Source: Octopus sinensis (Eukaryota). Taken from it: DNA of 64,000 nucleotides. The stretch's first letter is position 1. Every line of letters begins with the position of its first letter. The DNA lies in NCBI RefSeq assembly GCF_006345805.1, contig NC_043001.1:135036001-135100000 (forward strand), written 5' to 3'. Shown in pieces: positions 58 to 61,345 of this stretch. Position numbers and translations under genes: made by a program. Below the pieces are notes generated by a model, which did no database searches, had not been told where the DNA came from, and saw nothing but the letters and a program-made list of their open reading frames with translations.

Positions 58-535
58 AGGGCGTTGACCTGCCAGAACCGTTAGCACACCAGGGAAAATA
101 TTTAGCGGCATTTTGTCCGTCTTTACGTTCTAAGTTCAAATTCCACCGGGATCGACGTTGTCTTTCATCCTATCGAGGCTGATAAAATAAGTACAAGTTG
201 AACAATGTATATTTCTTTACTACCCACAAGGGGCTAAACACAGAGAGAACAAAGAAGGACAGACAAACGGATTAAGTCGATTATATCGACCCCAGTGAGT
301 AACTGGTACTTAATTTATCGACCCCGAAAGGATGAAAGGCACAGTCGACCTCGGCGGAATTTGAACTCAGAACGTAACGGCTGACGAAATACGGCTACGT
401 ATTTCGCCCGGCGTGCTAACGTTTGTGCCAGCTCGCCGCCTTGTGCCAGCTCGCCGCCTTTAAGTTGAACAATGTAATCGACTTTCCCCCCATATCGCCG
501 AAATTACTGGCCTGGTGCCGAAATTTGAAACCAAT
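58..535 (+). mobile_element. Old SINE-B copy (short tail variant), interrupted by a younger SINE-B
   Basis: Degenerate head (gccagaaccgttagcac...aagttcaaattcc), central ctttcatcc...gataaaataagtac, tail ggcctggtgccgaaatttgaaacca. Confidence 0.8.
210..460 (-). mobile_element. SINE-B (tRNA-derived, long tail) nested in older SINE-B
   Basis: Full match to other copies; 15-bp TSD aagttgaacaatgta at 195-209 and 462-476; 18-bp duplication of the head. Confidence 0.92.
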
Positions 536-1127: not shown

Positions 1128-1679
1128 AAGCGCAGGCATGGTCGTATAGTAAGAAGTTTGCTTTCCAGTCACATGGTTTCGGGTTCAGTGCCACTGCGTA
1201 GTACCATGGGCAAGTGTCTTTCCTGTATAGCATCGAGTTGGACAAATAATTGTGAGTGGATTTGGTAGGTAGAAATTGAAAAGAAAACCGATTATATATG
1301 GCGGCGAGCTGGCAGAATCGTTAGCACGCCGGGCGAAATGCGTAGCCGTATTTCGTCTGTCGTTACGTTCTGAGTTCAAATTCCGCCGAGGTCGACTTTG
1401 CCTTTCATCCTTTCGGGGTCGATAAATTAAGTACCAGTTACGCACTGGGGTCGATATAATAGACTTAATCCCTTTGTCTGTCCTTGTTTGTCCCCTCTGT
1501 GTTTAGCCCCTTGTGGGTAGTAAAGAAATATATAAATGTATGTATGTGTATGTGTGTGCGTATGTGTATTTGTACTTGTGTCAGTCTCCTCACCACTTGA
1601 AAACCTGTGTTGTTTCATTTACGTTCCTTCAAGGCGTTGCTCTAGAACGGCCACAGTAATAACTGAAACATGTAAAAGG
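1128..1679 (+). mobile_element. Old SINE-C copy with SINE-B inserted in its internal microsatellite
   Basis: Head with gggttcagtgcc B-box and tgggcaagtgtctt core; 3' part resumes after 1530 and ends aactgaaacatgtaaaag. Confidence 0.8.
1299..1530 (+). mobile_element. SINE-B, full length
   Basis: ggcggcgagctggcagaatcgttagc...gagttcaaattcc...gccccttgtgggtagtaaagaaata. Confidence 0.93.
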
Positions 1680-6540: not shown

Positions 6541-7070
6541 AGTGTCCTTAGTCAATTTAATCCGCGTCGTAGATGTACACTCGAAATAAATAGAGAAAAT
6601 CCTTTCACTTTTATAAAAAGATTAAAAATGTATGACAGACCCTACATACAAAAAAATTATGTCCATTTACGTCCCTTTACGCGGAAGCTCTGGGCAAAAT
6701 ATCATTGTGCAAGTAATGTGTGTGTAAAGTTTGGGGAAAATCGGTTGAGAACTGTGGAAATTTATGCGTTCAGTGTTCCTAGTCAATTCAGTCACCGTCG
6801 CAGATGAACAGTCGAAATAAAGAAATAGACAAAATCTTTTCACTTTTATAAAAAAAGATTTAAAAAGTATGGAAGACCCTACATACAAAAACCTATGTCC
6901 ATTTACGTCCGTTTACGCAGGAGTTCTGGGTAAAATGTTATAGTGCATGACCATCCTTGTGACACAAGTGATGTGTGTGTAAAGTTTGGTGAAAATCGGT
7001 TGAGAATTGTGGAAATGTATGCGTTAGTCATTATACACACACATACTGTGATTTATATATACTAGACTAG
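6541..7070 (-). mobile_element. Helitron-like 5' segment with two diverged ~230-250-bp tandem units
   Basis: Units start at 6541 and 6771; both carry gtgtgtgtaaagtttgg..aaaatcggttga, similar to 7413-7445 in Helitron subfamily 2; ends in tttatatatactaga. Confidence 0.6.
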
Positions 7071-7523: not shown

Positions 7524-7717
7524 TGTCGATATTGACTGCTTAAATTAGCACGAAATACATTTATAAGTGGGATCTAAGAGAGTTACTTGATGTTCATGCC
7601 TTTACCATGAACACCAACAAAAAGTAGCTACAGAATCAATACAAAACACTGGGTCGCAGATTTATAGAGGAAGGCGAAATGAGACAGCATGATGTGCATT
7701 CGTCTTAGTAGAATAGC

Positions 7718-8112
7718 TATCTTTTATCTTTTATCTCTTGTTTCAGTCATTGAACTGCAGTCACATTGGGGCACTGCCTTGAAGGGTTTAGGTTAACAAA
7801 TCAACCTCAGTACTTTTGTTTTTAAAGTTCGGTATCCTATCATTCTCTTTTTGCTGAACCGCTAAGTTAGGGGACATATACAAGCCAGCATCGGTTGTTA
7901 AGCGGTGTAGGGGAACAAACAGAATCACTCATATACCCACATATATGATGGGTTTCACATAGTTCCCGTCTACCAAATCCACTCACAAGGCATTAGTGAG
8001 CTCGGGACTATAGTAGAAGATACTTGCCTAAGGTACCATGCAGGGGGAGCGAACCTGAAATCAAATGGTTGCAAAGCGAACTTCTTAACCATATATATAG
8101 TCGTGTCTGTGC
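7718..8112 (-). mobile_element. Old SINE-C copy
   Basis: Diverged match to SINE-C along its full length. Confidence 0.8.
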
Positions 8113-8638
8113 CCATTTTCTCTTCTTTACTTTTTTTTTATTCTGAGAATTCCTGTGTAACGGAAATATAATGAAAGTATTACAGGCGAGAATCGAGATT
8201 GAACAAGGAATACGTTTCAACCGAAGCTGTATAACACCGACACGAAAGGCGTGTTATTATTATTATTATTATTTTTTATTTTTACAATGATGACACACGC
8301 AGGCACGGAGAGAGTAAAGTTTCCTTCCATATGGAAAAAAAGATTTATCGACTTATTGCATGCCACGTTCTCATGAACAGACTGTTTACAACCTGTCTGA
8401 ATCAATTTCTCTACGACCAGCATAAATGTATTGATGACTCGTTGGAAGCTGAACACGATCTTACACAAATGAAGGTATATTATTTGGGGCGAAGGAAGCA
8501 ACAAAAATAAGTTGAAAAGTTTAGTAGAGTAAGCAGAATCGAATTTGAATCCACAAATGTATTTATCTTATGAATCTTCAGTCTTTATGAGACTTCTGGC
8601 GTTCTATTTATAATAGAAATTCGATCATATTGACTTCT

Positions 8639-9040
8639 TACTCTTTTACTCTTTTACTTGTTTCAGTCATTTGACTGCGGCCATGCTGGAGCACCGCCTT
8701 TAATCGAGCAACTCGACCCCGGGACTTATTCTTTTTGTAAGCCCAGTACTTATTCTATCGGTCTCTTATGCCGAACCGCTAAGTAACGGGGACGTAAACA
8801 CACCAGCATCGGTTGTCAAGCAATGCTAGGGAGACAAACACAGACACACACACACATATATATATATACATATATACGACAGGCTTCTTTCAGTTTCCGT
8901 CTACCAAATCCACTCACAAGGCATTGGTCGGCCCGGGGCTATAGCAGAAGACGCTTGCCCAAGGTGCCACGCAGTGGGACTGAACCCGGAACCATGTGGT
9001 TGGTAAACAAGCTACTTACCACACAGCCACTGCTGCGCCT
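8639..9040 (-). mobile_element. SINE-C (tRNA head, CORE-like block, internal (TA/TG)n, (aaagagt)n tail)
   Basis: Minus strand aggcgcagcagtggctgtgtggtaag...gggttcagtccc...ccttgggcaag; near-identical copies elsewhere. Confidence 0.93.
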
Positions 9041-9348
9041 TTATATTTATTTATCTGCTAATATTGTTGATACCTAACTGTTCGAAGCCAATCATATTTA
9101 CTTCAAATATAGAAAGTATGTTATGACAGAAACGATAGACCATGGACGCAAACTAGGTTAAGACGTTCGCTTCACAACCACGTGTTCTGGGTTCGATTCC
9201 ATTGCACAAAAACGAGGCAAATATCTTTTACCACTGTTTCAACCTCACCAATAACTTTTGAGACGAATTCAGTATTCAAAAACTGTGCAAAAAACGCCCG
9301 CCCATCGTAATGTTTGTATGGTCTCCCCTCTCTCTCTCTCTCTCTTTC

Positions 9349-14747: not shown

Positions 14748-15131
14748 TGGAAGCACTCCGTCGGTTACGACGATGAGGGTTCCGGTTGATCCGAATCAAC
14801 GGAACAGCCTGCTCGTGAAATTAACGTGTAAGTGGCTGAGCACTCCACAGACACGTGCACCCTTAACGTAGTTCTCGGGGATATTCAGCGTGACACAGAG
14901 AGTGACAAGGCCGACCCCTTGAAATATAGGTACAACAGAAACAGGAAGTAAGAGTGAGAGAAAGTTGTGGTGAAAGAGTACAGCAGGGATCACCACCATC
15001 CCCTGCCGGAGCCTCGTGGAGTTTTTAGGTGTTTTCGCTCAATAAACACTCACATCGCCCGGTCTGGGAATCGAAACCGCGATCGTATGACCGCGAGTCC
15101 GCTGCCCTAACCACTGGGCCATTGCGCCTCC
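14748..15131 (-). mobile_element. SINE-A, tail type 1
   Basis: Full length; TSD acaacatatagt. Confidence 0.95.
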
Positions 15132-16535
15132 ACAACATATAGTATATTAGTTGGTACGCGGCAAGAATGTTTTCCCTTGCATTTGGTATTACTGTTGATT
15201 CGCTAAAAGGCAACGTGATAAGTTGCGTAAGGTTTCGTTTTCCTGTACCCATCCTAGAATATTTTCAAAGAATTTAAAAAATGCTACTCTGATGTTACTG
15301 TCTGAAGCGGCAGTGTTGTTTGTGGACGCTCCACATATGATGAACACTCCATCGAAAACAATAATGGGGGAAAATAATCCATTAGGAATAAACTTTCTTA
15401 TTGTGGACTGAAACTTTTATCGAACAGTGTGCATGATACCAAGAACTTCCAACACAGACATAATAGATAATTACATCAAACAATTACCATTTGAGAATAT
15501 TGAAGATTATCAGACTCTTCACCAACATGATATCTCACCGTAATGCAGCTTTCAGTGATTGCCATGGGTATCAACTTAACTGTGTTTGCTCGCCGTGAGT
15601 TATTCCGAAGATGGGAGACCGACTGGTTGATGATTTGTCCTTGATTTGCTTGGTGAGAGCCGAGTTATGTTCTTTTCGAATTCCATCAGAACTCTGATTG
15701 ATTTTTAGCGCTAAACTGCTTAACCGGAGAAAAGAACACAGATCTCAAGGAAGTTTGAGATGGTGTTCTATCTGGTGGCATGATCTCCGGCATACTGACA
15801 AGCTAATAAATAGTGTGTTCAGGTGAAAATCGCATGACCCAAATGTAGCTCACTCACAATAGTGAACTGATAATTAAGCGAAAGGGTTTCAAATCCCTAC
15901 AGATGTATGGAAACAAAGTAAGGATGACGATTTAGTATAAGCACTGAAACACCATTAAAAAATGACTGAATCTAATGGTTTTTGCTTTATGATAGTGAAA
16001 TAAAACATTTTTTTTCTCATAGGTATAATATCGTTATATAACTTGTGTTTGTCAAATGTGAAAGTAATGTTATTACGAGACTTAAAATAATATTTGTTTA
16101 ATTAATTCATTATTCAGGATATTTAAATGAAGTAAGATTTTCCTGTGGCTTTTTTTTTCTAGCAAAAACTGTGACTCTTTCTGCGACATTTTTTTTTTAC
16201 ATTCCGTGACTTAATTTAACTTCTCAGTTGTAGATTCTAACCAAAATCCATTTACGGGTTTAATTTCATATTTACCAAGATCCATAAATAGGTTTACCAT
16301 ACACTTCAGATTAACTGAGACGATCTCAGTTTTCATCCTTTGTCTTGACATACCAGGCTGCTCGACTTATCTCGGGAGAGTTCGAAACAACGACGAAATT
16401 TTAAAACTTCATGAGAATTTGAGAGATTATATTTCATCATTTCGGGACTTAAGTACTTAATCATACATCATAAATCGGTGACTAGAGTATATGTTACTAT
16501 GTTATGGCCATAAGGCACCAGCAGTAAGGTAGCTG

Positions 16536-16914: not shown

Positions 16915-17296
16915 GGAGGCGCAATGGCCCAGTGGTTAGGGCAGCGGACTCGCGGTCATAGGATCGCGGTTTCGATTCCCAGACCGGGCGTTGTGAGTGT
17001 TTATTGAGCGAAAACACCTAAAGTTCCACGAGGCTCCGGCAGGGGGTGGTGGTGATCCCTGATGTACTCTTTCACCACAACTTTCTCTCACTCTTACTTC
17101 CTGTTTCTGTTGTACCTGTATTTCAAAGGGCCGACCTTGTCACTCTTTGTGTCACGCTGAATATCCCCGAGAACTACGTCAAGGGTGCACGTGTCTGTGG
17201 AGTGCTCAGCCACTTACATGTTAATTTCACGAGCAGGCTGTTCCGTTGATTCGGATCAACCGGAACCCTCATCGTCGTAACCGACGGAGTGCTTCC
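16915..17296 (+). mobile_element. SINE-A, tail type 1
   Basis: Full length; no TSD; 3' flank matches that of the 13895-14276 copy. Confidence 0.94.
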
Positions 17297-17484: not shown

Positions 17485-17690
17485 ATAGGCACGAGGCCAG
17501 TAATTTTGAGGAATAGGGGTAGTCGATTATATCGACCCCAGTGCTCAACTGGTACTTATTTTATCCACTCTGAAAGGATGAAAGGCGAATTCGACCTCAG
17601 CAGAATTTGATCTCATAATGTGAAGACGGACGAAATACTGCTAAGCATTTTGTCCGGCGTGCAAACGATTCTGTTTGCTTGCTGCCGTTT
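17485..17690 (-). mobile_element. SINE-B, short tail variant
   Basis: Minus strand cagaatcgtttgcacgccggacaaaatgcttagc...gcctttcatcctttc...aaattactggcctcgtgcct. Confidence 0.85.
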
Positions 17691-17699
17691 AACATACAG

Positions 17700-19099
17700 T
17701 AATAATACTTTGAATTGGAATCCTTCCTTTTTCATTCCGTCAGAGCGACGGAATAACAGGAGTGCCTTGCGACACTGTACGCCATGAACCCAACTTAAAT
17801 CTTCGATAGCACCAGGCTTCCCGTCCACCGAAACTAGTGAACTTGGGAAACATCCGTTTTGCCAGTGGAGACAACAACCGTTCACCATCCAGGAGGAGCC
17901 AAAGATGCCTCAACCTCAGCGCATGTTTGCGTATCATCAGCCAAAACATCGCTAGTCCCCCCATTAACGGTTTTTGGCAGCAGATAGAAGTCTCACAAGT
18001 GGTTTCGAGCCCTTCCACAAAAGCGAAAGAGCTGCCTTTCCAACTTGGTCAACCACGAAAGTTTGTAGCTCTGTCTGTATTAACATGTTGAATGTCTAGC
18101 CTTGCTAGTTTTGTTTTTCTGTGACAGAAGCTTGGAGGAGTGTGATCTGCTCCAAGTCTACTGTCACAGCCGCCACCAGCCAGGCTGCATTCACTTCTGG
18201 TGGAATTTTAGCTATTCTCACTTTGGAGGTTCTCCCCACCCCCATATACATTGGGAGGAGAATTACCTCGTCTGTTTTTAATGTTTCTATCGAATGGATT
18301 TGAACCTTTTCTTCACTCACCATTCGAACTTCCACTGTGCCAAATCTTTTGCCTCTCGTGATGTATTCTACAACCTTCCATATGTTCTTCAAAAATTTCT
18401 CTATTGTTTCTTCCTGCACTTTTTCTTTTTTCTTGTCCTAATATTAAACGTTTTATATATAATTATTTTCCTTTTTTCGACTTCTATTATTTCCTTTGGT
18501 GGAATTATTTCCACTTTCGTATCATCTTTTTAAGACGTATTTTTATACTTTAAAAGCTCACTTTTCTCAGTTGAGATTTTCCTTGTTTTTCCTCCGGTTG
18601 CCATGGCGAAACTTTTCTCTTCAGTCGAAACCACACTTGGCTCTCCACTTTTTACACTTGAGACATCAATATTCCTTTTTACACATTTTTTTCTTTTTAA
18701 GTAGTTTTGTCTTCATTTTTTCTTGGCGATACAACCGGAGATAAGACCAGTGAGACCGGTGAGATCGGCGAAAGACATGGGAATTCTTTTTCGTAATCCA
18801 TAACGAAAATTGGCAAACACACCAACTACACAAAATTTTGTTCACAGGCTTATCGCCGCACAAAAATAATTTTTTTTTCTTTGCACAGTTCGAATAATTA
18901 GTAACAAAATGCTTAAAACAAGCAAACAATAATTCAACAGTTCTAACAATGCAATAACTATAAATTCAACAATTCTTCAACAATCTTACCTTATTAAACA
19001 GAGCCGAATATATCAAAAACATAAAAAAACACATTCTTTTTATCTTAGTAAAGTAGGAGTGTGCAAAGCTTTATAATTTGCAAATGTGAATGAAAATAC
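17700..19099 (-). mobile_element. ORF1(gag)-like retroelement remnant, array unit 1 (3' end not found)
   Basis: ORF 18105-18419 (..RGKRFGTVEVR..LLPMYMG..KVRIAKIPPEVNAAWLVAAV) homologous to unit 2; 5' end gtattttcattcac. Confidence 0.7.
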
Positions 19100-19103
19100 T
19101 TTG

Positions 19104-20756
19104 TTTCTTTATTGCCCACAAGGGGCCAATGAAGAGGGGACAATACAAAGACATGTGGAAACATAGAACAAACGAAACAAAGTAAAAAAAATCAAAAACG
19201 TATGTTACAAGATGAATGATAAATGAAAATGAAAAAAATGTAATGAAGCTATTCGGCGGCCCCACCTAAACCTCGTTCCTTCTAAAATAGCTATCTTGTA
19301 CTCCCTCATGAGTTCCATGTATTCCTTACAATCGGGCTTCCCTTCTTTATCTATATTCACTTTGCAAATGGTGATTCCATGCTTATACCTTTCTATATCT
19401 GCTTTCCGCTCCTCCGAAATAAACATGTATAAATACTCCCTCTTCACATTAATCCTCGTCCATTTTAATAAACACTGTGTCCTTCCAATACCATGATTCT
19501 GTGACCAGTTCCCGGTTTGAGTCATCTATCATGCACGCAAAGCAACTCTTTCCTTTGGGCGGGGAGGGTGGAAAGTTTGGCGGCTTGTGTGTGAATGTTT
19601 CTTCTTTTTTTGTTTCTGTGTCGGAAGGGAGTAGGTAGGCTTGGTGTCTGTGGGGCGAGGGTGGGGCTGAGAAGGTATGGGTGGGATGGGTGTAGGTTGG
19701 GGTTTCAAGTTCGTATCAATTACCTTCTTTCCCCTTCCACTTTCTATCTTCCACGTTTCTTCCTTGGGTAATATTTCTTCCGCTTTTTCGGTCATCTCCA
19801 CTGGTTCTTCTGCTTTCTCTGTTTGTTCCTCCGTTGTTCTCTTGGGCGGGGAAGGACAGTCCAGTCTAATATCGAGGAATTCTATCCTCCACCTTAACTC
19901 TCATTTCCACTTCATCTAACATGACTATTTCTGTAATTTTTTCCACAGTTTCTATCGGTGCTTGTATCGTCATTTCTAGCGTTTTTCCCTTTCACATTTC
20001 ACAGTTTGTACCTGTGACCTAGAGCGCCTTTATATCGTCCTCGTCTCCTTTGAGGACTGCAGCTGCTATCCAGGCCACATCTATTTCCGGTGGTATTCCT
20101 TCAACACTGACCTTTGTTGCACGTCTACCCATGTAGGTGAGTAACAGCACCACTTCCTCGTCTTTTACGGTTTTTGCTGCGTGTCTTATTGCATTTTATT
20201 CCTTTCTAAATCTTACTTCTACCGTTCCAAATCTTGCTCCTCTTTTGACATATACGATGTCTTGCCACAAGGACTTCAGCATATTTTCCACTTGACTTGT
20301 GGTCACAATGTCAATTTTTCCTGCCTTTATTGAGAAAGTCTTGTAAATAATTGTTCTTGTTCTGATATCTTTTAATATTTCCATTGGAGGGGACAATTCT
20401 ACGTTGAAACCTTTTTGAACTTTTCCATTTTCTTTAAATCTATTTCTTCCTCTTGTCTTTTTGCCATATCTGCAAACCTTTTCTTTTCCTCAATTTTTCG
20501 TCCATCTCTCCTATAGCTCTTAACAGTTCGTCTTCAGAAGTCGACAACTCAGACCCACTAAGTCTGAATAACACATTTTCATCTTAACCATGGCTAACTT
20601 TTCTCATAAGAAGAGAGAAAGCATAAACAAACTGCCACAAGGCAGCACAATTCAATAAACAGAGTGTTTAAAAACACATAAAAATCAAACATAAAAATTA
20701 AACCCGTCTTAACAGCAGCAAAACGACTCACCAACCAAAAGTGAATGAAAACACCT
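19104..20756 (-). mobile_element. ORF1-only non-autonomous retroelement (~1.65 kb), array unit 2, both ends present
   Basis: 5' gtgttttcattcac; broken ORF ..KRGARFGTVEVRF..LLLTYMGRRATKVSVEGIPPEIDVAWIAAAV..IRLDCP; Pro/Lys-rich segment; 3' ttgtcccctcttcattggccccttgtgggcaataaagaaa; no RT or EN motifs seen. Confidence 0.72.
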
Positions 20757-20757
20757 G

Positions 20758-21485
20758 ATTCTTTATTACCCACGAGGGGCATAGATAGATAAGACAACAC
20801 AAGACACGTGGGGACATATAACAATTAAAATTACTATTATGAAAAAATATGGACGATAAATGATAATGATATATGAAAAATGTGCCACCTATCCCACCCC
20901 AGCAGTATCATTTACGTCCTTTTCGTATCCAGTCAAAGTTGATCCCATATTGTTCCTCTAATTTCTCATTTTCTATCTCGTCCGGTACGTCCTTTATATC
21001 ATACACCACCTCTCTATATATCTCACTCCCTCTTTAAACTTCTCTAATCATTTTCATTCTACATTCCGGCATCAATGCGTCTAAGACCATATTTTCTTTT
21101 TTATTTCCCTTCATGTTTATAACTTTCACATCCTTTCATTGCAACAACTTATTTTTCACTTCCATTTTTACACCCTTAAACACAGCACAAGCATAACGAG
21201 TGGGAGGGGCGTTTTGTGGTTTTTTTTTGTATGATTGCTGCTCTTTTTTTCTTTTTTGTGTCGGTGGGGAATGGGTGGCTTCGGTGTCTGCAGGGGGAGG
21301 GCGGTGCTGAGAAGGTATGGGTACTGGTTGGGGGGGTCACTTAAACTGTCCTTTTTCCTCTTCCTCTGTTTTCTTCCAGTAATTTGCTATCCATCTTCCT
21401 CATTTGTTCCTTCCATCCTTTCTGGTTCATTCTCTTTCTCTTGGGTTTGCTTATTTTTCAGAGGGCAGTCCGCTCTAATGCGGCC
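20758..21485 (-). mobile_element. Array unit 3, 5'-truncated
   Basis: GRIRADCP knuckle remnant at ~21460-21487; gctgagaaggtatgggt block shared with unit 2; 3' gcccctcgtgggtaataaagaat. Confidence 0.7.
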
Positions 21486-21674
21486 CTTATATATATATAT
21501 AAGTGAAGGCGTACAGTTGAGGGATTGAGAGAACAAACATTAGAGGTTGTTATCCGATTGAGAAAATATTTAATGAACGATTTTGTAAAATAATCATATT
21601 TTCCTCTAAATGAATGATAGTACATTTATTATGGTTTGTTGTAAAGTGGTAAGCTATAAATGTATAATGTAAAT

Positions 21675-21981
21675 ATCACCGTGATCACCGTGACCGACCA
21701 GGCTATCAGATGTTGCTACACATCGCTGGTCACACTTCGCACTGTTTTAGCCTTCAAATGACGCTACCCCGCTGGCTAAGCGAGCAGGCCAACAGAAGAA
21801 AGAGTGAGAGAAAGTTGTGGTGAAAGAGTACAGCAGGGATCGTCACCATCCCCTGCCGGAGCCTCGTGGAGGTTTAGGTGTTTTCGCTCAATAAACACTC
21901 ACAACGCCCGGTCTGGGAATCGAAACCGCGATCCTACGACCGCGAGTCCGCTGCCCTAACCACTAGGCCATTGCGCCTCCA
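21675..21981 (-). mobile_element. SINE-A head and body with tail type 2
   Basis: Matches SINE-A up to ctctcactct, then a different tail ending ggtcggtcacggtgatcacggtgat; TSD ataatgtaaatat. Confidence 0.93.
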
Positions 21982-22344
21982 CATAATGTAAATATAATAC
22001 TTATAATGTCTTCTTTATTGTAGTTTTATTTCATAACCAACCCTATTACCGATTACGTGACATAATTAGATTACGTTACCTAGGTAATTACTTATAGTGA
22101 ATACACATACTCACACATACACACATATAATCCAAATAATAAGAAGAAGATAACCAAAATTCTTTAATAGAATGTGTTTAAAAATTCTCTTTTAGTTAGA
22201 TTGTTTACTTTTCGCCAAATCCACTTTATGGTGTGATCGTTGTAATTGTCGTGAAACTTGGTTTTCCTACACCTGGAACCCAGCCCAGTATTCGAGTCGA
22301 GTGCTTCTCTGGAAATACCCTAACTTTAGACCTTACCAAGATCT

Positions 22345-22386: not shown

Positions 22387-22675
22387 TCACCGTGACCGAC
22401 CAGGCTATCAGATGTTGCTACACATCGCTGATCACAATGCATTGTTTTTAGCCTTCAAATGACGCCACCCCGCTGGCTAAGCGAGCAGGCCAACAGAAGA
22501 AAGAGTGAGAGAAAGTTGTGGCGAAAGAGTACAGCAGGGATCGCCACCACCCCCTACCGGAGCCTCGTGGAGCTTCAGGTGTTTTCGCTCAATAAACACT
22601 CACAACGTCCGGTCTGGGAATCGAAACCGCGATCCTCCGACCGCGAGTCCGCTACCACTGGGCCATTGCGCCTCC
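22386..22675 (-). mobile_element. SINE-A, tail type 2
   Basis: Matches 21675-21981; flanked by (TA)n and (CA)n. Confidence 0.92.
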
Positions 22676-22702
22676 ACACACACACACACACATATATATA
22701 TA

Positions 22703-26134: not shown

Positions 26135-26137
<3 letters not shown>

Positions 26138-26538
26138 TCTTTTACTCTTTTACTTGTTTCAGTCATTTGACTGTGGCCATGCTGGAGCACCACCTTTTAG
26201 TCGAGCAAATCGACCCCAGGACTTATTCCTTGTCAGCCTAGTACTTATTCTATCAGTCTCTTTTGCCGAACCGCTAAGTTACGGGAACGTAAACACACCA
26301 ACATCGGTTGTCAAGCGATGTTGGGGGGACAAACACAGACACACAAACACATACACACACATATATATATGTATACATATATACGACGGGCTTCTTTCAG
26401 TTTCCGTCTACCAAATCCACTCACAAGGCTTTGGTCGGCCCGGGGCTATAGTAGAAGACACTTGCCCAAGGTGCCATGCAGTGGGACTGAACCCGGAACC
26501 ATGTGGTTGGTAAGCAAGCTACCTACCACACAGCCACA
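26135..26538 (-). mobile_element. SINE-C
   Basis: Near full-length match. Confidence 0.93.
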
Positions 26539-27445: not shown

Positions 27446-27447
27446 AA

Positions 27448-27673
27448 GGCGGCGAGCTGGTAGAAACGTTAGCACGCCGGGCGAAATTCGTAGCCGTATT
27501 TCGTCTGTCGTTACGTTCCGAGTTCAAATTCCGCCGAGGTCGACTTTGCCTTTCATCCTTTCGGGGTCGATAAATTAAGTACCAGTTACGCACTGGGGTC
27601 GATGTAGTCGACTTAATCCGTTTGTCTGTCCTTGTTTGTCCCCTCTGTGTTGCCCCTTGTGGGTAGTAAAGAA

Positions 27674-27677
<4 letters not shown>
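27448..27677 (+). mobile_element. SINE-B, full length
   Basis: Full match; followed by ~210 bp of imperfect (TA)n. Confidence 0.93.
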
Positions 27678-30379: not shown

Positions 30380-30929
30380 TTGGTATCAAATTTTGGCGCA
30401 CGGCCAGCAATTCTTGGAGAGGGGGTAAGTCGATTATATCGACCCTAGTACTCAACTAGTGTGGCGGCGCAATGGCCCAGTGGTTAGGGCAGCGGGCTCG
30501 CGATCGAAGGATCGCGGTTTCGATTCTCAGACCAGGCGTTGTGTGTGTTTATTGAGCGAAAACACCTAAAAGCTCCACGAGGCTCCGGCAGGGGGGTGGC
30601 GACCCCTGTTGTACTCTTTCGCCACAACTTTCTCTCACTCTCTCTTCCTGTTTCTTGAGGAACGCTGCGATCGACGGGCGTCCCGTCCAGCTGGGGGGAA
30701 CACATACGCCACAGAAACCGGGAAACCGGGCCCATGAGCCTGGCTAGGCTTGAAAGGGCGACATTTATCGTTTTTTTTTAGTACTCAACTGGTACTTATT
30801 TGATCAACCCCAAACGGATGAAAACGCAAAGTTGACCCCGGTGGAATTTGAACTCAGAACGTAAGGACGGACGAAATGTCGCTAAGCATTTTGTCCGGTG
30901 TGTTAACGATCCTGCCAGCTTGCCGCCTT
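30380..30929 (-). mobile_element. SINE-B short tail variant, host of a nested SINE-A
   Basis: Halves at 30380-30460 and 30780-30929. Confidence 0.85.
30463..30779 (+). mobile_element. SINE-A head and body with tail type 3
   Basis: Tail gctgcgatcgacgggcgtcccgtccag...gccacagaaaccgggaaaccgggcccatgagcc; TSD agtactcaact(a/g)gt. Confidence 0.9.
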
Positions 30930-32746: not shown

Positions 32747-33146
32747 GGCGGCGAGTTGGCAGAAGCGTTAGCACGCCGGGCGAAATGCTTAGCGGTATTT
32801 CGTCTGCCGTTACGTTCTGAGTTCAAATTCCGCCGAGGTCGACTTTGCCTTTCATCCTTTCGGGGTCGATAAATTAAGTACCAGTTACGCACTGGGGTCG
32901 ATGTAATCGACTTAATACCTATGTCTGTCCGTGTTTGTCCTCTCTGTGTTTAGCCCCTTGTGGGTAATAAAGAAATAGGTATTTCGTCTGCTGTTACGTT
33001 CTGAGCTCAAATTCCGCCGAGGTCGACTTTGCTTTTCATCCTTTCGGGGTCGATAAATTAAGTACCAGTTGCGTACTGGGCCCGATGTAATCGACTTAAT
33101 TCCTTTGTCTGTCTTTGTTTGTCCCCTTGTGGGCAATAAAGAAATA
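32747..33146 (+). mobile_element. Tandem SINE-B dimer (full copy plus 5'-truncated copy)
   Basis: Second unit starts at internal ggtatttcgtctg (32978); agataaatagatagatag on both outer flanks. Confidence 0.92.
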
Positions 33147-33152
33147 AGATAA

Positions 33153-35670: not shown

Positions 35671-36079
35671 AGGCGCAGGAGTGGCTGTGTGGTAGGTAGC
35701 TTGTTTACCAACCACATGGTTCCGGGTTCAGTCCCACTGCGTGGCACCTTGGGCAAGTGTCTTCTACTGTAGCCTCGGGCCGACCAATGCCTTGTGAGTG
35801 GATTTGGTAGACGGAAACTGTAAGAAGCCCGTCGTATATATGTATATATATATAAGTGTGTGTGTATATGTTTGTGTGTCTGTGTTTGTCCCCCTAGCAT
35901 TGCTTGACAACCGATGCTGGTGTGTTTACGTCCCCGTCACTTAGCGGTTCGGCAAAAAGAGACCGATAGAGTAAGTACTGGGCTTACAAAAAGAATAAGT
36001 CCCGGGGTCGAGTTGCTCGATTAAAGGCGGTGCTCCAGCATGGCCGCAGTCAAATGACTGAAACAAGTAAGAGAGTAAG
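35671..36079 (+). mobile_element. SINE-C, full length
   Basis: aggcgcaggagtggctgtgtgg...gactgaaacaagtaagagagtaa. Confidence 0.94.
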
Positions 36080-36364
36080 AGAGAGAGATCATGACGATCA
36101 ACTGAAGCTGCGATTCTAAGTCGTACCCGGGTGTAGGGAAGAAAAATGACGTTCAAAATTTGTGGCGGTTTCGTCTGCTCGCTCATTTAATCTCCTTATT
36201 TCTCCACATTTCAAAATGAATCAAAATGAATGAAAAAAAAAACCCCCATCTTTAAATGCAATTCAAATTATAATTTTAAATCAAATTATAATTTACGAAG
36301 AATTCATGTTGAAACTAATATTAAATTATCATTATTATTATGCTAATTATACCAGAAAATATTA

Positions 36365-36969: not shown

Positions 36970-37195
36970 AGGCGGCGAAGCCGGCGAGCGGGCAAAATCG
37001 CAACCGCGTTGGACAAAATGCTTAGCGGCATTTCGTCCGTCTTCACGTTCTGAGTTCAAATTTTGCCGAGACCAACTTTACCTTTTATTCTTTCGGGGTC
37101 GATAAAATATGTACGATTTGAGCACTGGGGTCGATATAATCGACTCTAACCTCGTCCCTCGAAATTGCTTTCCTTGTTCCAAAATTTGAAACCAA
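36970..37195 (+). mobile_element. SINE-B, short tail variant
   Basis: Head, central domain and tail ccaaaatttgaaacca. Confidence 0.85.
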
Positions 37196-40270: not shown

Positions 40271-40523
40271 CTATTCTTCACCACCTTGTTTAAGCAATTT
40301 ATTTTTGGAATGACATCTGCCGAACAGAGCTGATAAAGCAGTCGTTCCCAGAATTAGTTTGCTGTGGAACCTATACCTGTAGTTTACAGATAACTCCAGC
40401 CGCCCAAATTTTAGTATGACATTAAACGAAACAAAATTTGTCCCAAAGAATATATTTATATGGAAAAAAAATTATAAATAAACAACTTATTTTTTGATAA
40501 TATTTATCATATAAAAAGTATTT

Positions 40524-40929
40524 ACTCTCTTTACTAATTTACTCTTTTACTTGTTTCAGTCATTTGACTGCGACCATGCTGGAGCACCGCCTTTAGTCGA
40601 GCAAATTGACCCCGGGACTTATTCTTTGTAAGCCCAGTACTTATTCTATCGGTCTCTTTTGCCGAACCGCTAAGTGACGGGGACGTAAACACACCAGCAT
40701 CGGTTGTCAAGCAATGCTAGGGGGACAAACACAAACACAAACACACACATATATATACATATATACGACAGGCTTCTTTCAGTTTCCGTCTACCAAATCC
40801 ACTCACAAGGCTTTGGTCGGCCCAGGGCTATAGCAGAAGACACTTGCCCAAGATGCCACACAGTGGGACTGAACCCAGAACCATATGGTTGGTTAGCAAG
40901 CTACTTACCACACAGCCACTCCTGCGCCT
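40524..40929 (-). mobile_element. SINE-C, full length
   Basis: Near-identical to other copies. Confidence 0.94.
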
Positions 40930-41569
40930 ATATAATAAATTTTATTCAATATTTTTAAAAGGCATTTAACTCTTGGACCACTAAGACATTTTTTTAACGG
41001 ATTACCTCTGAGAAATACTCCAAGAAAGTGTCATGGAGGGTGTTGTTATGCTTCTGATGTGATGCTGGTGGTGAATGAAAATGTCTTTTTAAGGCTGCTT
41101 GTAAAAGTGATTAAGAAGACTCATGAACAATTGACAGAAGCTTTATTTACGGCACATCGTATTTTCTGTGTTGCTTCTTTGGATGAAAAATAAAAGCAAC
41201 AATTTATACACACTGGGAGAGACATACTACTGGGGTCTACAACGAACTAGTTGGTGTGTATCAATCTGTGATTGGCCCATCACAACTGGAAAAAATAATC
41301 CCGCTATATTCGTGACGGCAAAAGCTGTACCTTCTATCTGCAACAACTGGTGAATGAAATGAGGATGGAGATGTTAAAGCGACTGTCTCAGCATACTGAA
41401 ATTGCCGTCAAAACACCACCTTTCTATGGAGCTCATTAAGAAATGCTAAAAAGGCCGAATCACGTGATGGCTCGATGCTGGTTTGTCGGTTAATCGGCCG
41501 ATCACATGACACAACAGTGATCGTACCATGCTATCTGCGATTCGGTTTCGAATCTGCTATAAGAGTATT

Positions 41570-44450: not shown

Positions 44451-45221
44451 TGCCATCTAGCAACAATTTACCATTGGCAAATGGAAGCAGTATAGCCGAA
44501 TGGTTAAGAAGTTCATTCCACAATCATGAGCTCTTGGGTTCCATCATACTGAGCGGCATCGTAAAACAAGCGCCTTTTACCATGGCCCCGGGTAAATCCA
44601 ATTGAAACTGGGTAGACGGAAACTGTTTGAAGCCTGTCACTGGAAAGGCCAGGTTTGTCACAGACTGTGTAACGCTTGTTCTGCACGAATATTGTATTAA
44701 GAGGATTCGTTTTTGTGGAAAACTCAGCCACTTATACGCTATTTCAATAAATAGGGAGTTGAGTTGATTGAACAACTAGATACTCATCGTTGAAATCGAC
44801 GGAGATCCATTAACCTTACTTTATCTTTCATTCGTTTCTGATATTGGGCTGCAGCTATGCTGGGGTACCATCTTGAAGGGTTCTAGTCGAATAGGTCGCC
44901 CCCGTATTTATTTTTTAAGCGAAATACTTATTCTAGAGGCCTCTCTTTGCTGAACGGCTATGTTATAGGACGTAAACAAACCAACAGCAATTATCAATTG
45001 GATTGGGAATGGGGACCAGCTCAGGCACAAAGACACACGTATGAGCCAAATTGATATCACCATTCCCATCAAATGGTACTTTCCCATTTCCTTCTCATAA
45101 TCCCAATAATGTCTTCTGTCATCCCCAACCCTACTCTGTTTTTCTCAGTTTCTTCTCTCTTGAACTACATCACTCAGAAACTACCCAGTAAAAGTTACAC
45201 GCCAGCCAGCCCGCGGCTGAC

Positions 45222-45350
45222 GCTGCTGCTGCTACCGCCACTGCCGCTGTTGCTATCGCCTCCGCTGCTGCTACCGCCACTGCCGCTGTTGCTATCGCCT
45301 CCGCCGCTGCTACCGCCACTGCCGCTGTTGCTATCGCCTCCGCTGCTGTC
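45222..45350. repeat. 39-bp GC-rich tandem repeat x3
   Basis: gctgctgctaccgccactgccgctgttgctatcgcctcc three times, one substitution. Confidence 0.95.
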
Positions 45351-45352
45351 AC

Positions 45353-46406
45353 CACAAAAAATTCAGCAACGTCGACACGCAAATAAAATTTGAAATAGAA
45401 CACCTGAACGAGTCTGGAATCCTTTCTCTGCTTAATTTCCAAATCAGTATCACGGAGGAGGGTTCCAGCTATACTAAGTTTCACAAGAAAGCTGCCAGTA
45501 GGAATATGTTCGAACACTATGAATCAGACTTGCCCACCAGAGCCAAAGCTGCATACGTACGAAACGAAATCACACGCATAAGCGACAGAAGCAGCGATAC
45601 AGTCAACAAAGCTTCCAACCCCAAACGGTAACTCAAGAACGTAATGCACAACGGCTATCCTCTATCTTTATCCAAACGTCTGCATTGAAAAAACATTAAA
45701 GTGAGTAAAACATAAGAAGGCCCATAATCCTAAGTTTGACATGTGCTTCCTTAAACTATACTATTTCGATGACAGAACCACTGGCGCTATACAATATGTT
45801 AATCGACAGGGAGGCACTCAACATATAAAATGGAGCTTACTGGTCCATCCCCAAGGAAATTTCTAGGAATAATACTTTAGATAGGATCGTGGAGAACACA
45901 CTATCCAATTGCTTAATCAACGACTTCAAATTGTTCTCGAGGGCCTATATTGTATACGAGGGAGTCTACAGTAAATGTGGAGCTACCTCCATTGGGGGCA
46001 CCACAAGGATTTGCATGTTCGAATCAAAGAACATACGTGCACAGACACTTCAATAAAAAAAAAACACCAATAGAAGTGTCAGACCCAGAATTTCAAGGTA
46101 TCCATCAGGGCCACTCAACACAACAGAGGCAAACTGAGACCGGCCATTAACAACAGATAAATGCTACACGAAGCTGAATGGTTACTATAGCAACCCCTGT
46201 CTGTATGTCACCTTCCTCCCCAACACATCTGAGCAATGACCTGTTTCCATTTCTTGCTTTTCCACATGTCCTGAGGAAGAGGTAATAGTCCCGAAATATA
46301 GAAATATAAGGTAAACAACTTTGTTTAGTTTTTTTATAGTTTACTTTATATATTCTTGCATCTATCAAGTCTCTTTAATGTAATATCACACAATGCTTCA
46401 CCAAAA

Positions 46407-47828: not shown

Positions 47829-48621
47829 ATCCACTCCGTCATTTAATGTGCTAAATCGAAAGATCGTAAAAACAATTTAATTTGTAACAACAATAACGAC
47901 ATAATAGCGACAACAACAACGTAAACAGCAAATGAAATAAAATGGTTCCTTATGCTGATGTAATGATAGATTATATTGGAGAGAAAACGAGATTGCATAA
48001 TGCTCATGACCAGTGGCGACTCCTGTATAGGGACTGCAGAACTGCAGCACCCCCTATTTCCACTCGATATTATCGGTAACATTCAATATAACAAGTCCTT
48101 TTTTCTTTAATTCTTTCTTTATATTTGTACATTTTATAATCATTAAGCTTAATGTCAGTAGTCATCCCCTAGTTTATGAAAAAAATACAAAAATCTTTGT
48201 ATAGAACTGTGCGCTTCACAGTTCCAGCGACGCGGTGTTTGGCTGCTGTGCGCATGCTCACATGTCCGAGATAAGAAGCTTCATGCTAGGGAGAGAGAGA
48301 ACTGTGGTTACACAGTGCCGACCCTGGTATGCTGGTAAAAGGTAGTGTTTCTTTTTGACTCCGCGTGTGCTGTGCTTAAAAACGTGTTTATATTCTTGAA
48401 TATGATAAAGCGTAGGATTAGATTATTATCCTGTTTCCAGCTAAAGTGTTGCTGCTAGGATTTGAAAGATAGGGCAGATTCCTACCCACCTTATCTTGTG
48501 ATTTAGGGAGGAATTTTGAAAAACAAGGGGAAATTCGCGGCTGTGTTCAGGTGAATTAAACGCACAATCCGGCAGTGGCTAAAACGTGAACCGATCAAGT
48601 TCATGTATAAATTTTCTTTCT

Positions 48622-49037
48622 ATACTCTTTTACTCTTTTACTTGTTTCAGTCATTTGACTGCGGCCATGCTGGAGCACCACCTTTAGTCGAGCAAATCGA
48701 CCCCGGGACTTATTCTTTGTAAGCCCAGTACTTATTCTATCGGTCTCTTTTTGCCAAACCGCTAAGTGACGGGGACGTAAACACCCCGGCATCGGTTGTC
48801 AAGCGATGGTGGGGGGACAAACACAGACACACAAACATATACACACACATACATATATATATATACATATATACGACAGGCTTCTTTCAGTTTCCGTCTA
48901 CCAAATCCACTCACAAGGCATTGGTCGGCCCGAGGCTATAGCAGAAGACACTTGCCCAAGATGCCACGCAGTGGGACTGAACCCGGAACCATGTGGTTGG
49001 TAAGCAAGCTACTTACCACACAGCCACTCCTGCGCCT
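48622..49037 (-). mobile_element. SINE-C, full length
   Basis: Near-identical to other copies. Confidence 0.94.
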
Positions 49038-49334
49038 ATATGTTTGTTTCCTTATTAAAACAACGGCTAAAAATCTTCTGAAGCAGCGTCCCCAACTAAT
49101 TTTATCTACGAGTCACCACTGCTCATGACTATGATATAAGGCAAGGATTTTTAGTGTTCATTGTGAGAAATTCCGCGGTTCTGCAAGATATGGTATCTTT
49201 TAAAAGAATTTATTAAAAAATTATTTTCAGTCTCGCTGTGCGGCATCGTGGGCGAGGTTTTATACTATATCTCCGAACCGACCAATACCTTCTGAGTGAA
49301 TTTCATAGACGGAAACTACGTAGAAGCCCTTCAC

Positions 49335-51742: not shown

Positions 51743-51901
51743 TAGGAGTGGCTGTGTGGTAAGTAGCTTGCTAACCAACCACATGGTTCCGGGTTCAGTC
51801 CCACTGTGTGGCATCTTGGGCAAGTGTCTTCTGCTATAGCCCCGGGCCGACCAATTCCTTGTGAGTGGATTTGGTAGACGGAAACTGAAAGAAGCCTGTC
51901 G

Positions 51902-51937
<36 letters not shown>

Positions 51938-52157
51938 AGTGTGTGTGTGTGTGTCTGTGTTTGTCGCCCTAGCATTGCTTGACAACCGATGCTGCTGTAT
52001 TTACGTCCCCGTCACTTAGCGGTTCGGCAAAAGAGACCGATAGAATAAGTACTGGGCTTACAAAGAATAAGTCCCGGGGTCGATTTGCTCGACTAAAGGC
52101 GGTGCTCCAGCATGGCCGCAGTCAAATGACTGAAACAAGTAAAAGAATAAAAGAATA
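51743..52157 (+). mobile_element. SINE-C
   Basis: Full match. Confidence 0.94.
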
Positions 52158-52449
52158 ATGTAGAGAGAGGATGGGGTGGAACATAGCCCCACCACGACCA
52201 CCTCTAAAATGCGTGTCCTGTAGCTCAATGGATAAAGTGGCTTTCGATATTCATTTCTTCTGGCTTTTTACGTACTGAGTTCAAATCTCGCTGGGGTCTA
52301 TTTTGCTTTTCATCACTCCGTCTCTGCGTGGTGAGTAAAATAAAACACCAGTCAAATACCGGTATCGGGGTATCGACTTAACCACTTCCACTGTACTTAA
52401 ATTGGAAGCAATTATTACATTTAAAAACTAAAATTTATAATAATCACAT

Positions 52450-52625
52450 AGGCGCAGGAGTGGCTGTGTGGTAAGTAGCTTGCTAACCAACCACATGGTT
52501 CCGGGTTCAGTCCCATTGCGTAGCATCTTCTGCAAGTGTCTTCTGCTATAGCCCCGGGCCGACCAATGCCTTGTGAGTGGATTTGGTAGACGGAAACTGA
52601 AAGAAGCCTGTCGTATATATGTATG

Positions 52626-52656
<31 letters not shown>

Positions 52657-52847
52657 GTGTGTATGTTTGTGTGTCTGTGTTTGTCCCCCTAGCATTGACA
52701 ACCGATGCTGGTTCGGCAAAAGAGACCGATAGAATAAGTACTGGGCTTACAAAGAATAAGTCCCGGGGTCGATTTGCTCGACAAAAGGCGGTGCTCCAGC
52801 ATGGCCGCAGTCAAATGACTGAAACAAGTAAAAGAGAGTAAAGAGTA
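52450..52847 (+). mobile_element. SINE-C with internal ~30-bp deletion
   Basis: gatgctggt joined directly to tcggcaaaag (ggt microhomology). Confidence 0.93.
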
Positions 52848-52987
52848 TAGATTTGCTTCAAATCGATATACAAGAGAAAGGAATTAGTCTTTCAGATTCT
52901 TACCAAGAAAGTGACAACTAGAGAACGCAGTATAATATCGACTTTATTACAGGAAGCAGGAGAACTTTAAAAGGCGGTAATTTCCTG

Positions 52988-53150
52988 TTGTGAGTTCAAA
53001 TTCCGCCGAGGTCGTCTTTGCTTTTCATCCTTTCGGGGTCGATAAATTAAGTACCAGTTACGCACTGGGGTCGATGTAATCGACTTAATACCTATGTCTG
53101 TCCTTGTTTGTCCCCTCTGTGTTTAGCCCCTTGTGGGTAATAAAGAAATA
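52988..53150 (+). mobile_element. 5'-truncated SINE-B
   Basis: TSD ggtaatttcct. Confidence 0.9.
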
Positions 53151-55200: not shown

Positions 55201-55594
55201 TGTGTAGGTATTTAGTTATGTCCCTTTACATTTTGATTCCCTTTATCCGACGACACCATTATTTCTTTATTGCCCACAAGAGGTTAAAGCAATGTCTGAG
55301 TCTCTATTTGGTGTCCGGCAATGTTTATTCAGACGCATTTTGTGATGTCGGGCGCGAAAATACCTTAAGCTAAGCCTGAAAGCAATGAAGTCATAAAAGA
55401 ATCATCCATAACTTGCAGTAAGCAACATTTATTAAAATAAAAGTATTCAGAACACAGAATAACATGTAACAAAAACAACTAGCAAACATATTTACATTCC
55501 CAGTTAAGAACATCATCATTATTGTATTACGCATGCGCGAAATTTTTTGTCCGACTAGTTGCTGCTGGCTTAATTAGGCACGACTCAAGTTAGA

Positions 55595-58086: not shown

Positions 58087-58229
58087 TGCCTATATTCTGC
58101 AGTTACCGTATTCTGCTTTATAATATGCTGTTGGAGGATTCTAGAATGCAGAACAAAAGATTGCAGTCGGTCATTTAAGTTTTGGTACAGAAATACCTTA
58201 TGCACTTACAGAAGGACTACTAAGATATT

Positions 58230-58788
58230 GGAGGCGCAATGGCCCAGTGGTTAGGGCAGCGGACTCGCGGTCATAGGATCGCGGTTTCGATTCCCAGACC
58301 GGACGTTGTGAGTGTTTATTGAGCGAAAACACCTAAAGCTCCACGAGGCTCCGGCAGGGGATGGCGGTGATCCCTGCTGTACTCTTTCACCACAACTTTC
58401 TCTCACTCTTACTTCCTGTTTCTGTTGTACCTGTATTTCAAAGGGCCGGCCTTGTCACTCTCTGTGTCACGCTGAATATCCCCGAGAACTACGTTAAGGG
58501 TACACGTGTCTGTGGAGTGCTCAGCCACTTACACGTTAATTTCACGAGCAGGCTGTTCCGTTGATTCAGATCAACCGGAACCCTCATCGTCGTAACCGAC
58601 GGAGTGCTTCCATTTCAAAGGGCCGGCCTTGTCACTCTCTGTGTCACGCTGAATATCCCCGAGAACTACGTTAAGGGTACACGTGTCTGTGGAGTGCTCA
58701 GCCACTTACACGTTAATTTCACGAGCAGGCTGTTCCGTTGGTCGGATCAACCGGAACCCTCGTCGTCGTAACCGACGGAGTGCTTCCA
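58230..58788 (+). mobile_element. SINE-A tail type 1 with tandem duplication of its 3' ~177 bp
   Basis: atttcaaagggccggcc...gtgcttcc twice; single outer TSD actaagatatt. Confidence 0.94.
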
Positions 58789-59930: not shown

Positions 59931-60623
59931 CTCATCAGTCTCACTCAAAGGACTGAGAAGGCTGATGGGGCCTTCTCAAAGCTTCCTCCAGACTCCCACC
60001 TCCCAAAATGGAGTTGAGCGACCAAGTTGGTTCGTAATTGCCATTTAGTTTTGTCACCGTTGTTTAATTTGAATCACTGTGATTCCAATCTATTATATTA
60101 TAGTGCTAACGATAGATTCCTGTTGTGTAAAACAATTTGTCCCGCTGTGGAAAAGGGATGGTAAAAGTGAGTGTGCGATAGGAGAGCAGACATACGCACA
60201 TTCACAAGCATATGAATGCTATTGATGCACAACTACATACATGCACATATACGACAATTATCTGAGTGTGTATGTGTGTATGAGAAAGTGTGTGTATGGG
60301 AGTATCTGTATATGTGCACAGGCCATTAGCATTCGTATACGTGTGACTATGTGTATGTGAAGACGTGCCTAGTGGTGTTTGTTTAATTCCCCCTCGTTTA
60401 CTATTTACCTGACGATTTAATGCAAGCGTGTTAGAGCAAGTCATTGCCATGAAGATTGAACATCTATCTACGCTATTTTCCATATATTAATTACTATCTT
60501 CTTAACTCTTTTCGTAAAATGTGTGTAACGGTATGACCTGGATATGGAGACTTTTGAACTATCTATATACTAATCCTATCTTTCTTTGTAAAAAATGTGC
60601 AACGGTATATAACGGTATATATA

Positions 60624-60853
60624 GGCGGCGAGCTAGCAGAAGCGTTAGCACACCGGGCGAAATGCTATGCGGTACTTCGTCTGCCGTTACGTTGTGAGTT
60701 CAAATTTCGCCGAGGTCGACTTTACCTTTCATCCTTTCGGGGTCGATAAATTAAGTACCAGTTACGCACTGGGGTCGATGTAATCGACATAATACCTATG
60801 TCTGTCCTTGTTTGTCCCCTCTATGTTTAGCCCCTTGTGGGTAATAAAGAAAT
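60624..60853 (+). mobile_element. SINE-B, full length
   Basis: Full match; ggtatata on both flanks. Confidence 0.93.
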
Positions 60854-61345
60854 AGGTATATACTGGATACTGGTGTCACCAACGATGTAAAAATCAAGTG
60901 CTTCTTAAAATATTTTATTACCGAAACAGAGTTTGGTATGTTACGTCGGACAACGATCATAGAACGCGACAGCGAGAATAGAATAGATAGAGGCAGAGAA
61001 GATATAGGGAAAATTAAGGGAATAGCAAAAAGAAGAAAGGAGAATTAGGAGTAAAGAAAGCAGAATCAAGAAGACTAGGAGAATTAACTCAAGAGGAAAG
61101 GAGTAATATTTATGCAAGAAATGGAGCTTGACGGTATCATCTGCTTAACGATGAAACTGAAGCTAATAGGGAAACATAATTGCTAATCAAAATAAGGGGC
61201 AAGTGATAGGCGATGGTGACAGACAAAAATATTTTGCGCAAGTCAGAATGAGGAAACAAGTTACAAGAGAATAGACTACGTTTTCTAGAAATTAATCTAA
61301 GAATTATGAAGGTAAATAACAGGATATTATTACCGAAATGTTTAT

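Follow-up and report, generated by a model that had tools for sequence, protein, structure and literature searches.

The window, by which we mean the whole 64-kb stretch of Octopus sinensis DNA analyzed here, carries three retroelements (units 1 to 3) arranged head to tail on the minus strand, accompanied by copies of a short element that we call SINE-B and by other repeats (Table 1). Unit 2, the middle element, has no ORF2. A genome search with it returned 67 matches from 40 scored of 339 candidates, and among the matches listed its nearest other copy is 78% identical. It does not itself lie inside a SINE, and its 19-bp target duplication is found in the window only at the 2 flanking sites when up to 2 mismatches are allowed. 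The same kind of search with unit 3 gave 44 matches, and all 9 other loci fetched have an ORF1 upstream and no ORF2. The tail of unit 3 adjoins the upstream copy of the unit 2 duplication, as expected if the two elements landed at the same site. Unit 1 is not an ORF1-only element, since the 5′ part of its ORF1 is joined at about 18060 to 18070 to ORF2 codons ~811 to 917, with about 2.58 kb deleted and the 3′ end and tail lost. Both parts match a single locus (L083, G000:C1:74.395-74.399 Mb) with identities of 84% and 87% and a spacing of about 2.58 kb, and the 3′ end of L083 is the shared tail described below. Unit 1 is thus a relic of an autonomous partner within the window itself, and the proposed LINE, thought to be unseen, is represented there by a deleted copy of one subfamily.

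Table 1. Positions of retroelements and related features in the 64-kb window.
Feature	Position	Strand	Remarks
SINE-B copy	208..442	-	15-bp target duplication
SINE-B copy	1300..1531	+	reference copy in this work
Unit 1	17742..19010	-	relic of autonomous LINE; 5′ boundary approximate
Unit 2 target duplication, 3′ copy	19081..19099	-	17/19 identical to 20736-20754
Unit 2 shared 3′ tail	19104..19153	-	hairpin (4-bp stem, 5-nt loop) at 19114-19126, then AATAAA, no poly(A)
Unit 2	19104..20735	-	full-length ~1.63-kb decayed ORF1-only retroelement: 5′ UTR, broken ORF1, 3′ UTR, tail
Unit 2 broken ORF1	about 20591 to 19250	-	tandem RRM core; zinc-knuckle region lost
Unit 2 target duplication, 5′ copy	20736..20754	-	doubles as 3′ flank of unit 3
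Unit 3	20757..21487	-	ORF1-only element, truncated at its 5′ end, from a sister subfamily; retains the 3′ part of ORF1, the 3′ UTR and the tail (about 20759-20810)
SINE-B copy	27447..27677	+	in (TA)n
SINE-B tandem	32747..33147	+	full copy, then unit starting at SINE position 48/49, the site of LINE subfamily S
SINE-B, 5′-truncated	52987..53150	+	11-bp target duplication
Lone tail fragment, ~27 nt	55259..55288	-	23/25 to unit 2 tail
SINE-B copy	60623..60854	+	8-bp target duplication
Second SINE, ~400 bp, abundant	7717-8087, 8628-9068, 26135-26537, 35671-36085, 40519-40956, 48618-49049, 51744-52158, 52439-52847
Another frequent SINE-like family, different head	16925-17290, 14790-15135, 21795-21985, 22500-22680, 58223-58789, 63603-63985

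The original prediction had noted that an ORF1-only element and SINE-B end in a common 3′ tail, and all tails that it quoted are found in the window on the strands given. The tail combines a stretch rich in pyrimidines with a short hairpin and AATAAA, and it ends without poly(A). In a search within the 64-kb window, the last 50 nt of unit 2 align over 50-51 nt with 6 SINE-B copies at 78-86% identity (E 7e-5 to 3e-10) and over 29 nt with a seventh, tail-deleted copy at 93%, while the tail of unit 3 matches that of unit 2 at 75% over 69 nt. The lone tail fragment aligns over 55259-55283 (E 2e-5); no target duplication was found around 55259-55288, and the fragment is probably an extremely 5′-truncated insertion whose source family is not assignable. 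Across the genome, a 35-nt SINE-B tail pattern has 38,668 exact matches in the 2.72 Gb searched and its reversed control has none. For unit 2, the tail is the element's own 3′ end, because the target duplication brackets the whole unit and its relatives carry the tail in register.

The other repeats of the window include the ~400-bp second SINE, which we label “OK-like”. Elsewhere in the genome, LINE subfamily B and ORF1-only elements with K-type tails insert at its head site. The SINE-like family with a different head gave no match to the shared tail in searches of the window. Older SINEs that resemble SINE-B in head and body and have another 3′ end, one without the shared tail, lie at 17521-17686, 60-199, 30787-30927 and 36982-37145, possibly pointing to tail exchange in the history of SINE-B.

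Autonomous LINE subfamilies, their targets and SINE-B

A genome search with a piece of ORF1 gave 12,477 candidates, of which 150 were scored (12 of these 150 ORF1 matches were left unfetched). Full LINEs lie around ORF1 matches; their ORF2 comprises the domains Exo_endo_phos, RVT_1 and zf-RVT, and they carry variants of the same tail, so that the autonomous endonuclease–reverse transcriptase LINE whose existence had been postulated is indeed there. With its APE endonuclease, reverse transcriptase and C-terminal zinc region, this lineage belongs to the L1 group of non-LTR retrotransposons. The best solved relative of its ORF2 is human L1 ORF2p (E 4e-69), followed by R2 (2e-23), and all 14 own-genome ORF2 rows fall into one branch (support 98) that includes subfamily S. 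Beyond the L1 group, which is shown, the lineage is likely part of the Tx1 clade, as suggested by a preference for repeats and microsatellites as targets that is described for Tx1 elements in the accessible text of PMC4494074. Its neighbors in the ORF2 tree are unnamed proteins or hypothetical proteins of fish, in a comparison from which named Tx1 references were absent.

ORF1 is predicted to fold into tandem RRMs (pLDDT 90) followed by a CCHC knuckle, and RRM12 proteins lead the comparison of this model with the PDB (E about 3e-4). The only named homologues returned for these proteins are from Octopus. An Atlas cluster of the ZCCHC3-type RNA-binding domain kind scored 0.90 against ORF1 and is a lead only; kinship to a fish LINE with such domains was rejected after a profile comparison matched the knuckle only, at a probability of 11%.

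Tail variants were found in at least 7 subfamilies of this one lineage (B, TC, D, E, the unit 1 type, L087 and S) instead of the one LINE originally proposed. Subfamily TC inserts into (TC)n (3/3 full copies), subfamily B has the tail in 28 of its 30 top loci and is then each time followed by the one site in the second SINE, and subfamily D uses several sites with 16-20-bp duplications; target duplications across the system measure about 8-28 bp. Subfamily D copies at L050:6819-7000, L055, L057 and L062, all on different contigs, share one 17-bp duplicated target inside a repeat, and the remaining copies lie at other sites. Another common target was seen for L018, L021, L022 and L028, and a third for L026 and L083, with a ~28-bp duplication in L026.

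SINE-B tandems are frequent, and their later units begin at position 48/49 of the SINE. One example is L267:2128-3645, where a full SINE-B is followed by 7 units starting at position 49, shortly upstream of an S-type LINE fragment. It was a LINE 3′ end seen at this same site in L076 that led us to subfamily S, whose copies are found at SINE-B position 48 in 15/15 older and 20/20 young cases (the latter comprising 17 by the strict pattern, 2 with one mismatch and 1 on the other strand). The young copies are 98.5-100% identical. Nineteen of them are full-length elements of 5.31-5.36 kb, flanked by a 16-bp duplication that corresponds to SINE-B positions 48-63; their ORF2 (1134 aa) is open in 6 of these 19, and L270 and L272 combine an open ORF2 with a full 520-aa ORF1. 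Among 82 SINE-B copies, a sample enriched by loci that were partly fetched because S sits in them, 35 3′ ends run into the position-48 site and 47 lie elsewhere.

Over its last 34 nt, SINE-B is matched best by older S copies (30-31/34; young S 27-29/34). The SINE-B tail looks like a mosaic, given that its distal 26 nt are identical to subfamily B while over 50 nt subfamily E (scores of 36-38) equals or exceeds the best older S copy (34-37). Judged by insertion target and terminal tail together, subfamily S is the most likely driver of SINE-B. Relatives of subfamily B were considered as partners and rejected, as none of the 30 top and 20 more distant loci (15 of the latter with the tail) is a G-type sister at SINE-B; nearly all of the tails found there are of the K type and lie at the site in the second SINE. 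At the junction, 34 of 35 SINE-B self-insertions have G first, including all 3 in which the upstream copy has C, whereas S insertions keep the base of the target (14 C and 5 G among 19). Outside the position-48 site, 15 of 47 SINE-B flanks start with GGTA. This junction G would be compatible with a read-through RNA whose end pairs with the target, a more speculative idea that builds on few cases. No upstream consensus was apparent at 10 SINE-B target duplications outside SINE-B.

Regarding the origin of the SINE-B head, ARAGORN found no tRNA gene in the window, and an Rfam scan of one SINE-B copy gave no relevant match, in particular none to an snRNA that would indicate a U1/U2-derived head. 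SINE-B contains motifs that by eye resemble the boxes of Pol III promoters and may represent them.

The association of tails and targets extends to the ORF1-only elements. Among 90 ORF1-only tails, the K type, which is also the variant of subfamily B, adjoins the site in the second SINE in 28/28 cases and all other types in 0/62, a rule that was written after inspection of the data and for copies that are not independent. K-type elements occupy 3 separate places in the ORF1 tree. Of the 30 terminal nt in the tail of the L056 subfamily, 29 agree with subfamily D; the sister of this subfamily, A, is closest to B, and the tail of unit 2 is closest to L087 (41/50). At the level of sequence comparison, ORF1-only subfamilies match different LINE subfamilies in both tail and target. 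The SINE-B head is where the nearest relatives of unit 2, L003 and L005, are inserted, and it also harbors L006, L103, L127, L135, L158, L060 and the deleted unit-1-type LINE L084. From tail similarity alone, the driver of unit 2 is likely an older L087- or unit-1-like subfamily and not S; the different site of its nearest relatives also speaks for an older sister. SINE-B and unit 2 would therefore have different sister subfamilies as partners, and the three-member system of the original prediction becomes a many-member network, so that this first reading was right in kind and wrong in number.

We consider it highly probable that a site-preferring endonuclease–reverse transcriptase LINE lineage underlies these observations and that SINE-B and the ORF1-only elements share its tail and are likely copied in trans by its ORF2, a trans-mobilization that we infer from sequence. 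That SINE-B and unit 2 are both moved by one and the same LINE family, or that subfamilies cross-mobilize so freely that any assignment of partners is meaningless, appears unlikely to us. It would accommodate the G-type hairpin and AATAAAGAAA end that are nearly identical in subfamilies S, D, E and L087, the majority of sampled SINE-B copies outside the position-48 site and an ORF1-only pair standing in tandem with a D copy at L060, but targets vary by subfamily and track the tail type. Furthermore, L003 and L005 lie in the SINE-B head but not at position 48, and unit 2 is old, as its closest listed copy indicates, whereas SINE-B and young S are recent.

A clade of ORF1-only elements

We parsed 196 ORF1 loci using a query that favors ORF1-only matches (one locus was counted twice and 2 labels were later corrected) and obtained 91 with ORF1 and tail but without ORF2, 33 with ORF2, 5 labeled as deleted and 67 unclassified. 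The loci labeled as deleted are unit 1, L084 and 3 others, among which L154 was mislabeled. A first ORF1 tree of 116 of the 128 classified rows (12 with fewer than 150 aligned residues were left out) contains a 76-row branch with support 99 that holds 74 ORF1-only rows including unit 2. For a second tree, L008, L099 and the second L044 element (all long branches) were dropped together with L114 and L154, and S was added; it separates 72 ORF1-only rows from 40 others, again with support 99. Two apparent cases of ORF2 inside the ORF1-only clade were dismissed, as the ORF2 belongs to a tandem neighbor at L114 and is an unrelated fragment 2 kb away at L154. Unit 2 thus belongs to a deep clade in which ORF1-only elements have persisted for long. 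Apart from this main clade, a further 5 or 6 ORF1-only rows stand on long branches, making a second origin of such elements possible.

Over the RRM-knuckle core, dN/dS between ORF1-only elements is 0.09-0.28 in 13 of 14 measurable pairs and 0.61 in the other (3 were saturated), compared to 0.07-0.18 in 3 pairs of autonomous ORF1s, and the ORF1 of this clade is under purifying selection. Young ORF1-only subfamilies have open frames of 412-487 aa and near-identical copies with their own duplications on different contigs. Contigs of 4 presumed RNA runs cover parts of a young copy, with no ends visible in them, and we draw no conclusion from these. We give hardly any credence to the idea that ORF1-only elements are merely repeated dead-on-arrival internal deletions of autonomous LINEs that do not propagate themselves. 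Such deletions do arise (unit 1, L084 and other loci labeled as deleted), but the trees do not place the ORF1-only rows within the autonomous ORF1s, and together with the low dN/dS between subfamilies and the near-identical open copies this already contradicts that explanation.

Much the same verdict applies to a derivation of the tails from SINE-B. Had they come from independent truncated SINE-B insertions with their own target duplications, a form of the idea that is refuted here, the tails would be confined to individual units, but other copies carry them and duplications enclose ORF1 together with the tail in unit 2, in L026 and, judged by the best local match, in 8 of a further 22 elements. 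The tail is the 3′ end of the ORF1-only elements themselves. An ORF1-only tail acquired from SINE-B and not from a LINE is conceivable in principle through template switching onto the RNA of so abundant a SINE, yet we regard it as very improbable: upstream of the shared part, unit 2 runs into a 3′ UTR typical of ORF1-only elements and not of SINE-B, and the ORF1-only tail variants fit different LINE subfamilies better than SINE-B.

Young ORF1-only elements occur in arrays, among themselves as well as with full LINEs, in which a target duplication lies between the units (L044-L047, L056 and L060). At L060:1500-1600 and 6890-6960, and in L056, a D-type LINE shares its first ~50 nt with the ORF1-only elements behind it, which suggests from the sequence that the two kinds of elements exchanged 5′ ends.

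A putative mobilization network and its known counterparts

Folding of the shared tail, a check suggested along with the original prediction, gives a small conserved hairpin. It could be anchored in 94 of 106 tails, where its 4-bp stem and 5-nt loop exist in 46 variants. The third stem pair flips between C-G and G-C and is Watson-Crick in 32 of 46 variants compared to 21.5 after shuffling (0/5000), and the fourth is paired in 31 variants compared to 22.9 (7/5000), for a stem of which the two inner pairs are partly fixed by the anchor and a shuffle that ignores relatedness. The energy of the hairpin is weak (z below -2 in 1/8 single-sequence folds), and by analogy it seems to be a small recognition element of the kind known from stringent SINE/LINE pairs, not a strong structure. 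Separately, the 3′ UTRs of L050, L053, L083, L085, L216, L047 and L056 contain a G-run that closely follows the stop codon and, immediately ahead of the tail, a C-run complementary to it. The two form a long-range duplex in some 3′ UTR folds, inconsistently, and may constitute a second, long-range RNA element of autonomous and ORF1-only elements.

We propose that ORF2 of the LINE lineage binds the tail and that target-primed reverse transcription starts there at the nick, a process of stringent recognition that is established for stringent LINEs (PMC3747384, accessible text). A parasite that copies the tail of one subfamily would then land at the site of that subfamily, and ORF1-only elements may retain ORF1 for a function that it has to perform on their own RNA. 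SINE-B would land in its own head and finish by pairing with the homologous 5′ part, creating units that start at position 48. With the target regenerated by duplication, repeated insertion would build head-to-tail mixed arrays such as that of units 3 and 2. More tentatively, and at somewhat below even odds, we suggest that one ancient ORF1-only lineage hops between hosts by retuning or swapping its 3′ tail to match whichever sister LINE is active and thereby inherits its target, that several LINEs home into the very SINEs that they mobilize, and that pairing of 3′ read-through RNA with nicked DNA partly sets the site. The latter would be akin to cotranscription effects cited in the accessible part of PMC4494074.

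Non-autonomous LINEs that retain ORF1 have been described as HAL1 in the L1 clade, HeT-A in Jockey and Ag-Sponge in CR1 (accessible text of PMC5786205 and PMC5753468). Like these, the octopus elements have only ORF1, LINE-type ends and a dependence on autonomous partners, and they too may have several origins. They differ in coming from a site-preferring L1/Tx1-group lineage, a clade outside the list in the available text of PMC5786205, in their structured tail without poly(A), and in forming one clade with many subfamilies that match the tails and targets of different partners. Their ORF1 of tandem RRMs and a CCHC knuckle sets them apart from HAL1 proper, which is derived from mammalian L1, though they are HAL1-like in how they work. 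Stringent SINE/LINE pairs have their last ~50 nt in common, including a small stem-loop with compensatory changes (PMC3747384 and PMC4824008, as far as accessible), and SINE-B and the octopus LINE lineage resemble them in sharing a terminal tail with such a stem-loop. The SINE-B/S pair additionally shares an insertion signature, position 48 of SINE-B. According to the accessible text of PMC3747384, SINE partners are predominantly CR1 and RTE elements and L1-clade cases come from plants and algae; unlike these pairs, the octopus partner is an animal L1/Tx1-group LINE that inserts inside the SINE that it likely mobilizes.

Preferred targets of the Tx1-type LINEs Tx1-Mar, Tx1, Keno, Kibi and Koshi are other repeats or (TC)n, and the crocodilian SINEU and Tx1-Mar resemble the octopus system as a SINE and a LINE with a common target and tandem insertion. 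SINEU elements, however, have snRNA heads and their target is a DNA transposon whereas SINEs are the targets in octopus; no LINE sharing the SINEU-1 3′ end was found, and the accessible text describes no ORF1-only member (all PMC4494074). For octopuses, abundant SINEs with the families OK, OR1 and OR2 are on record (Ohshima and Okada 1994, as cited in the accessible parts of PMC4758252 and PMC4824008), and recently active L1-Tx1 elements with 13 families and 421 insertions were reported for O. vulgaris (PMC13282606, PMC8967140). The accessible text of the two latter repeat surveys gives no partner, tail, target site or ORF1-only family. Each part of the network is thus known (SINE-LINE tails, elements of the HAL1/HeT-A type and Tx1 targeting), while their combination is new among the texts searched: we found no earlier description in this literature, which included the accessible parts of PMC10294476 and PMC3531059, though Repbase/Dfam, subscription papers and supplements may hold individual families.

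The network introduces no new biochemistry. It points to the probable engine behind a SINE that ranks among the most abundant of this octopus, with at least 38,668 exact tail matches. Young S copies with open frames and a fixed 16-bp target make tail recognition and targeting directly testable in an animal L1/Tx1-group element. The ORF1-only clade offers a natural experiment from which one may learn what makes a parasite keep ORF1 while it borrows ORF2, and how retroelement parasites change partners.

A few smaller features accompany these elements. At L095:4300-4974 (G000:C1:168.524 Mb), a unit-2-type tail and a short spacer form 8 tandem units of ~87 bp. In the window, a short inverted repeat lies at 17750-17775, where the ORF2 relic of unit 1 breaks off. 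An open frame at 45221-45631 (+) follows a GC-rich tandem repeat, and its second half presumably corresponds to the C-terminal part of a Penelope-type element, which it resembles.
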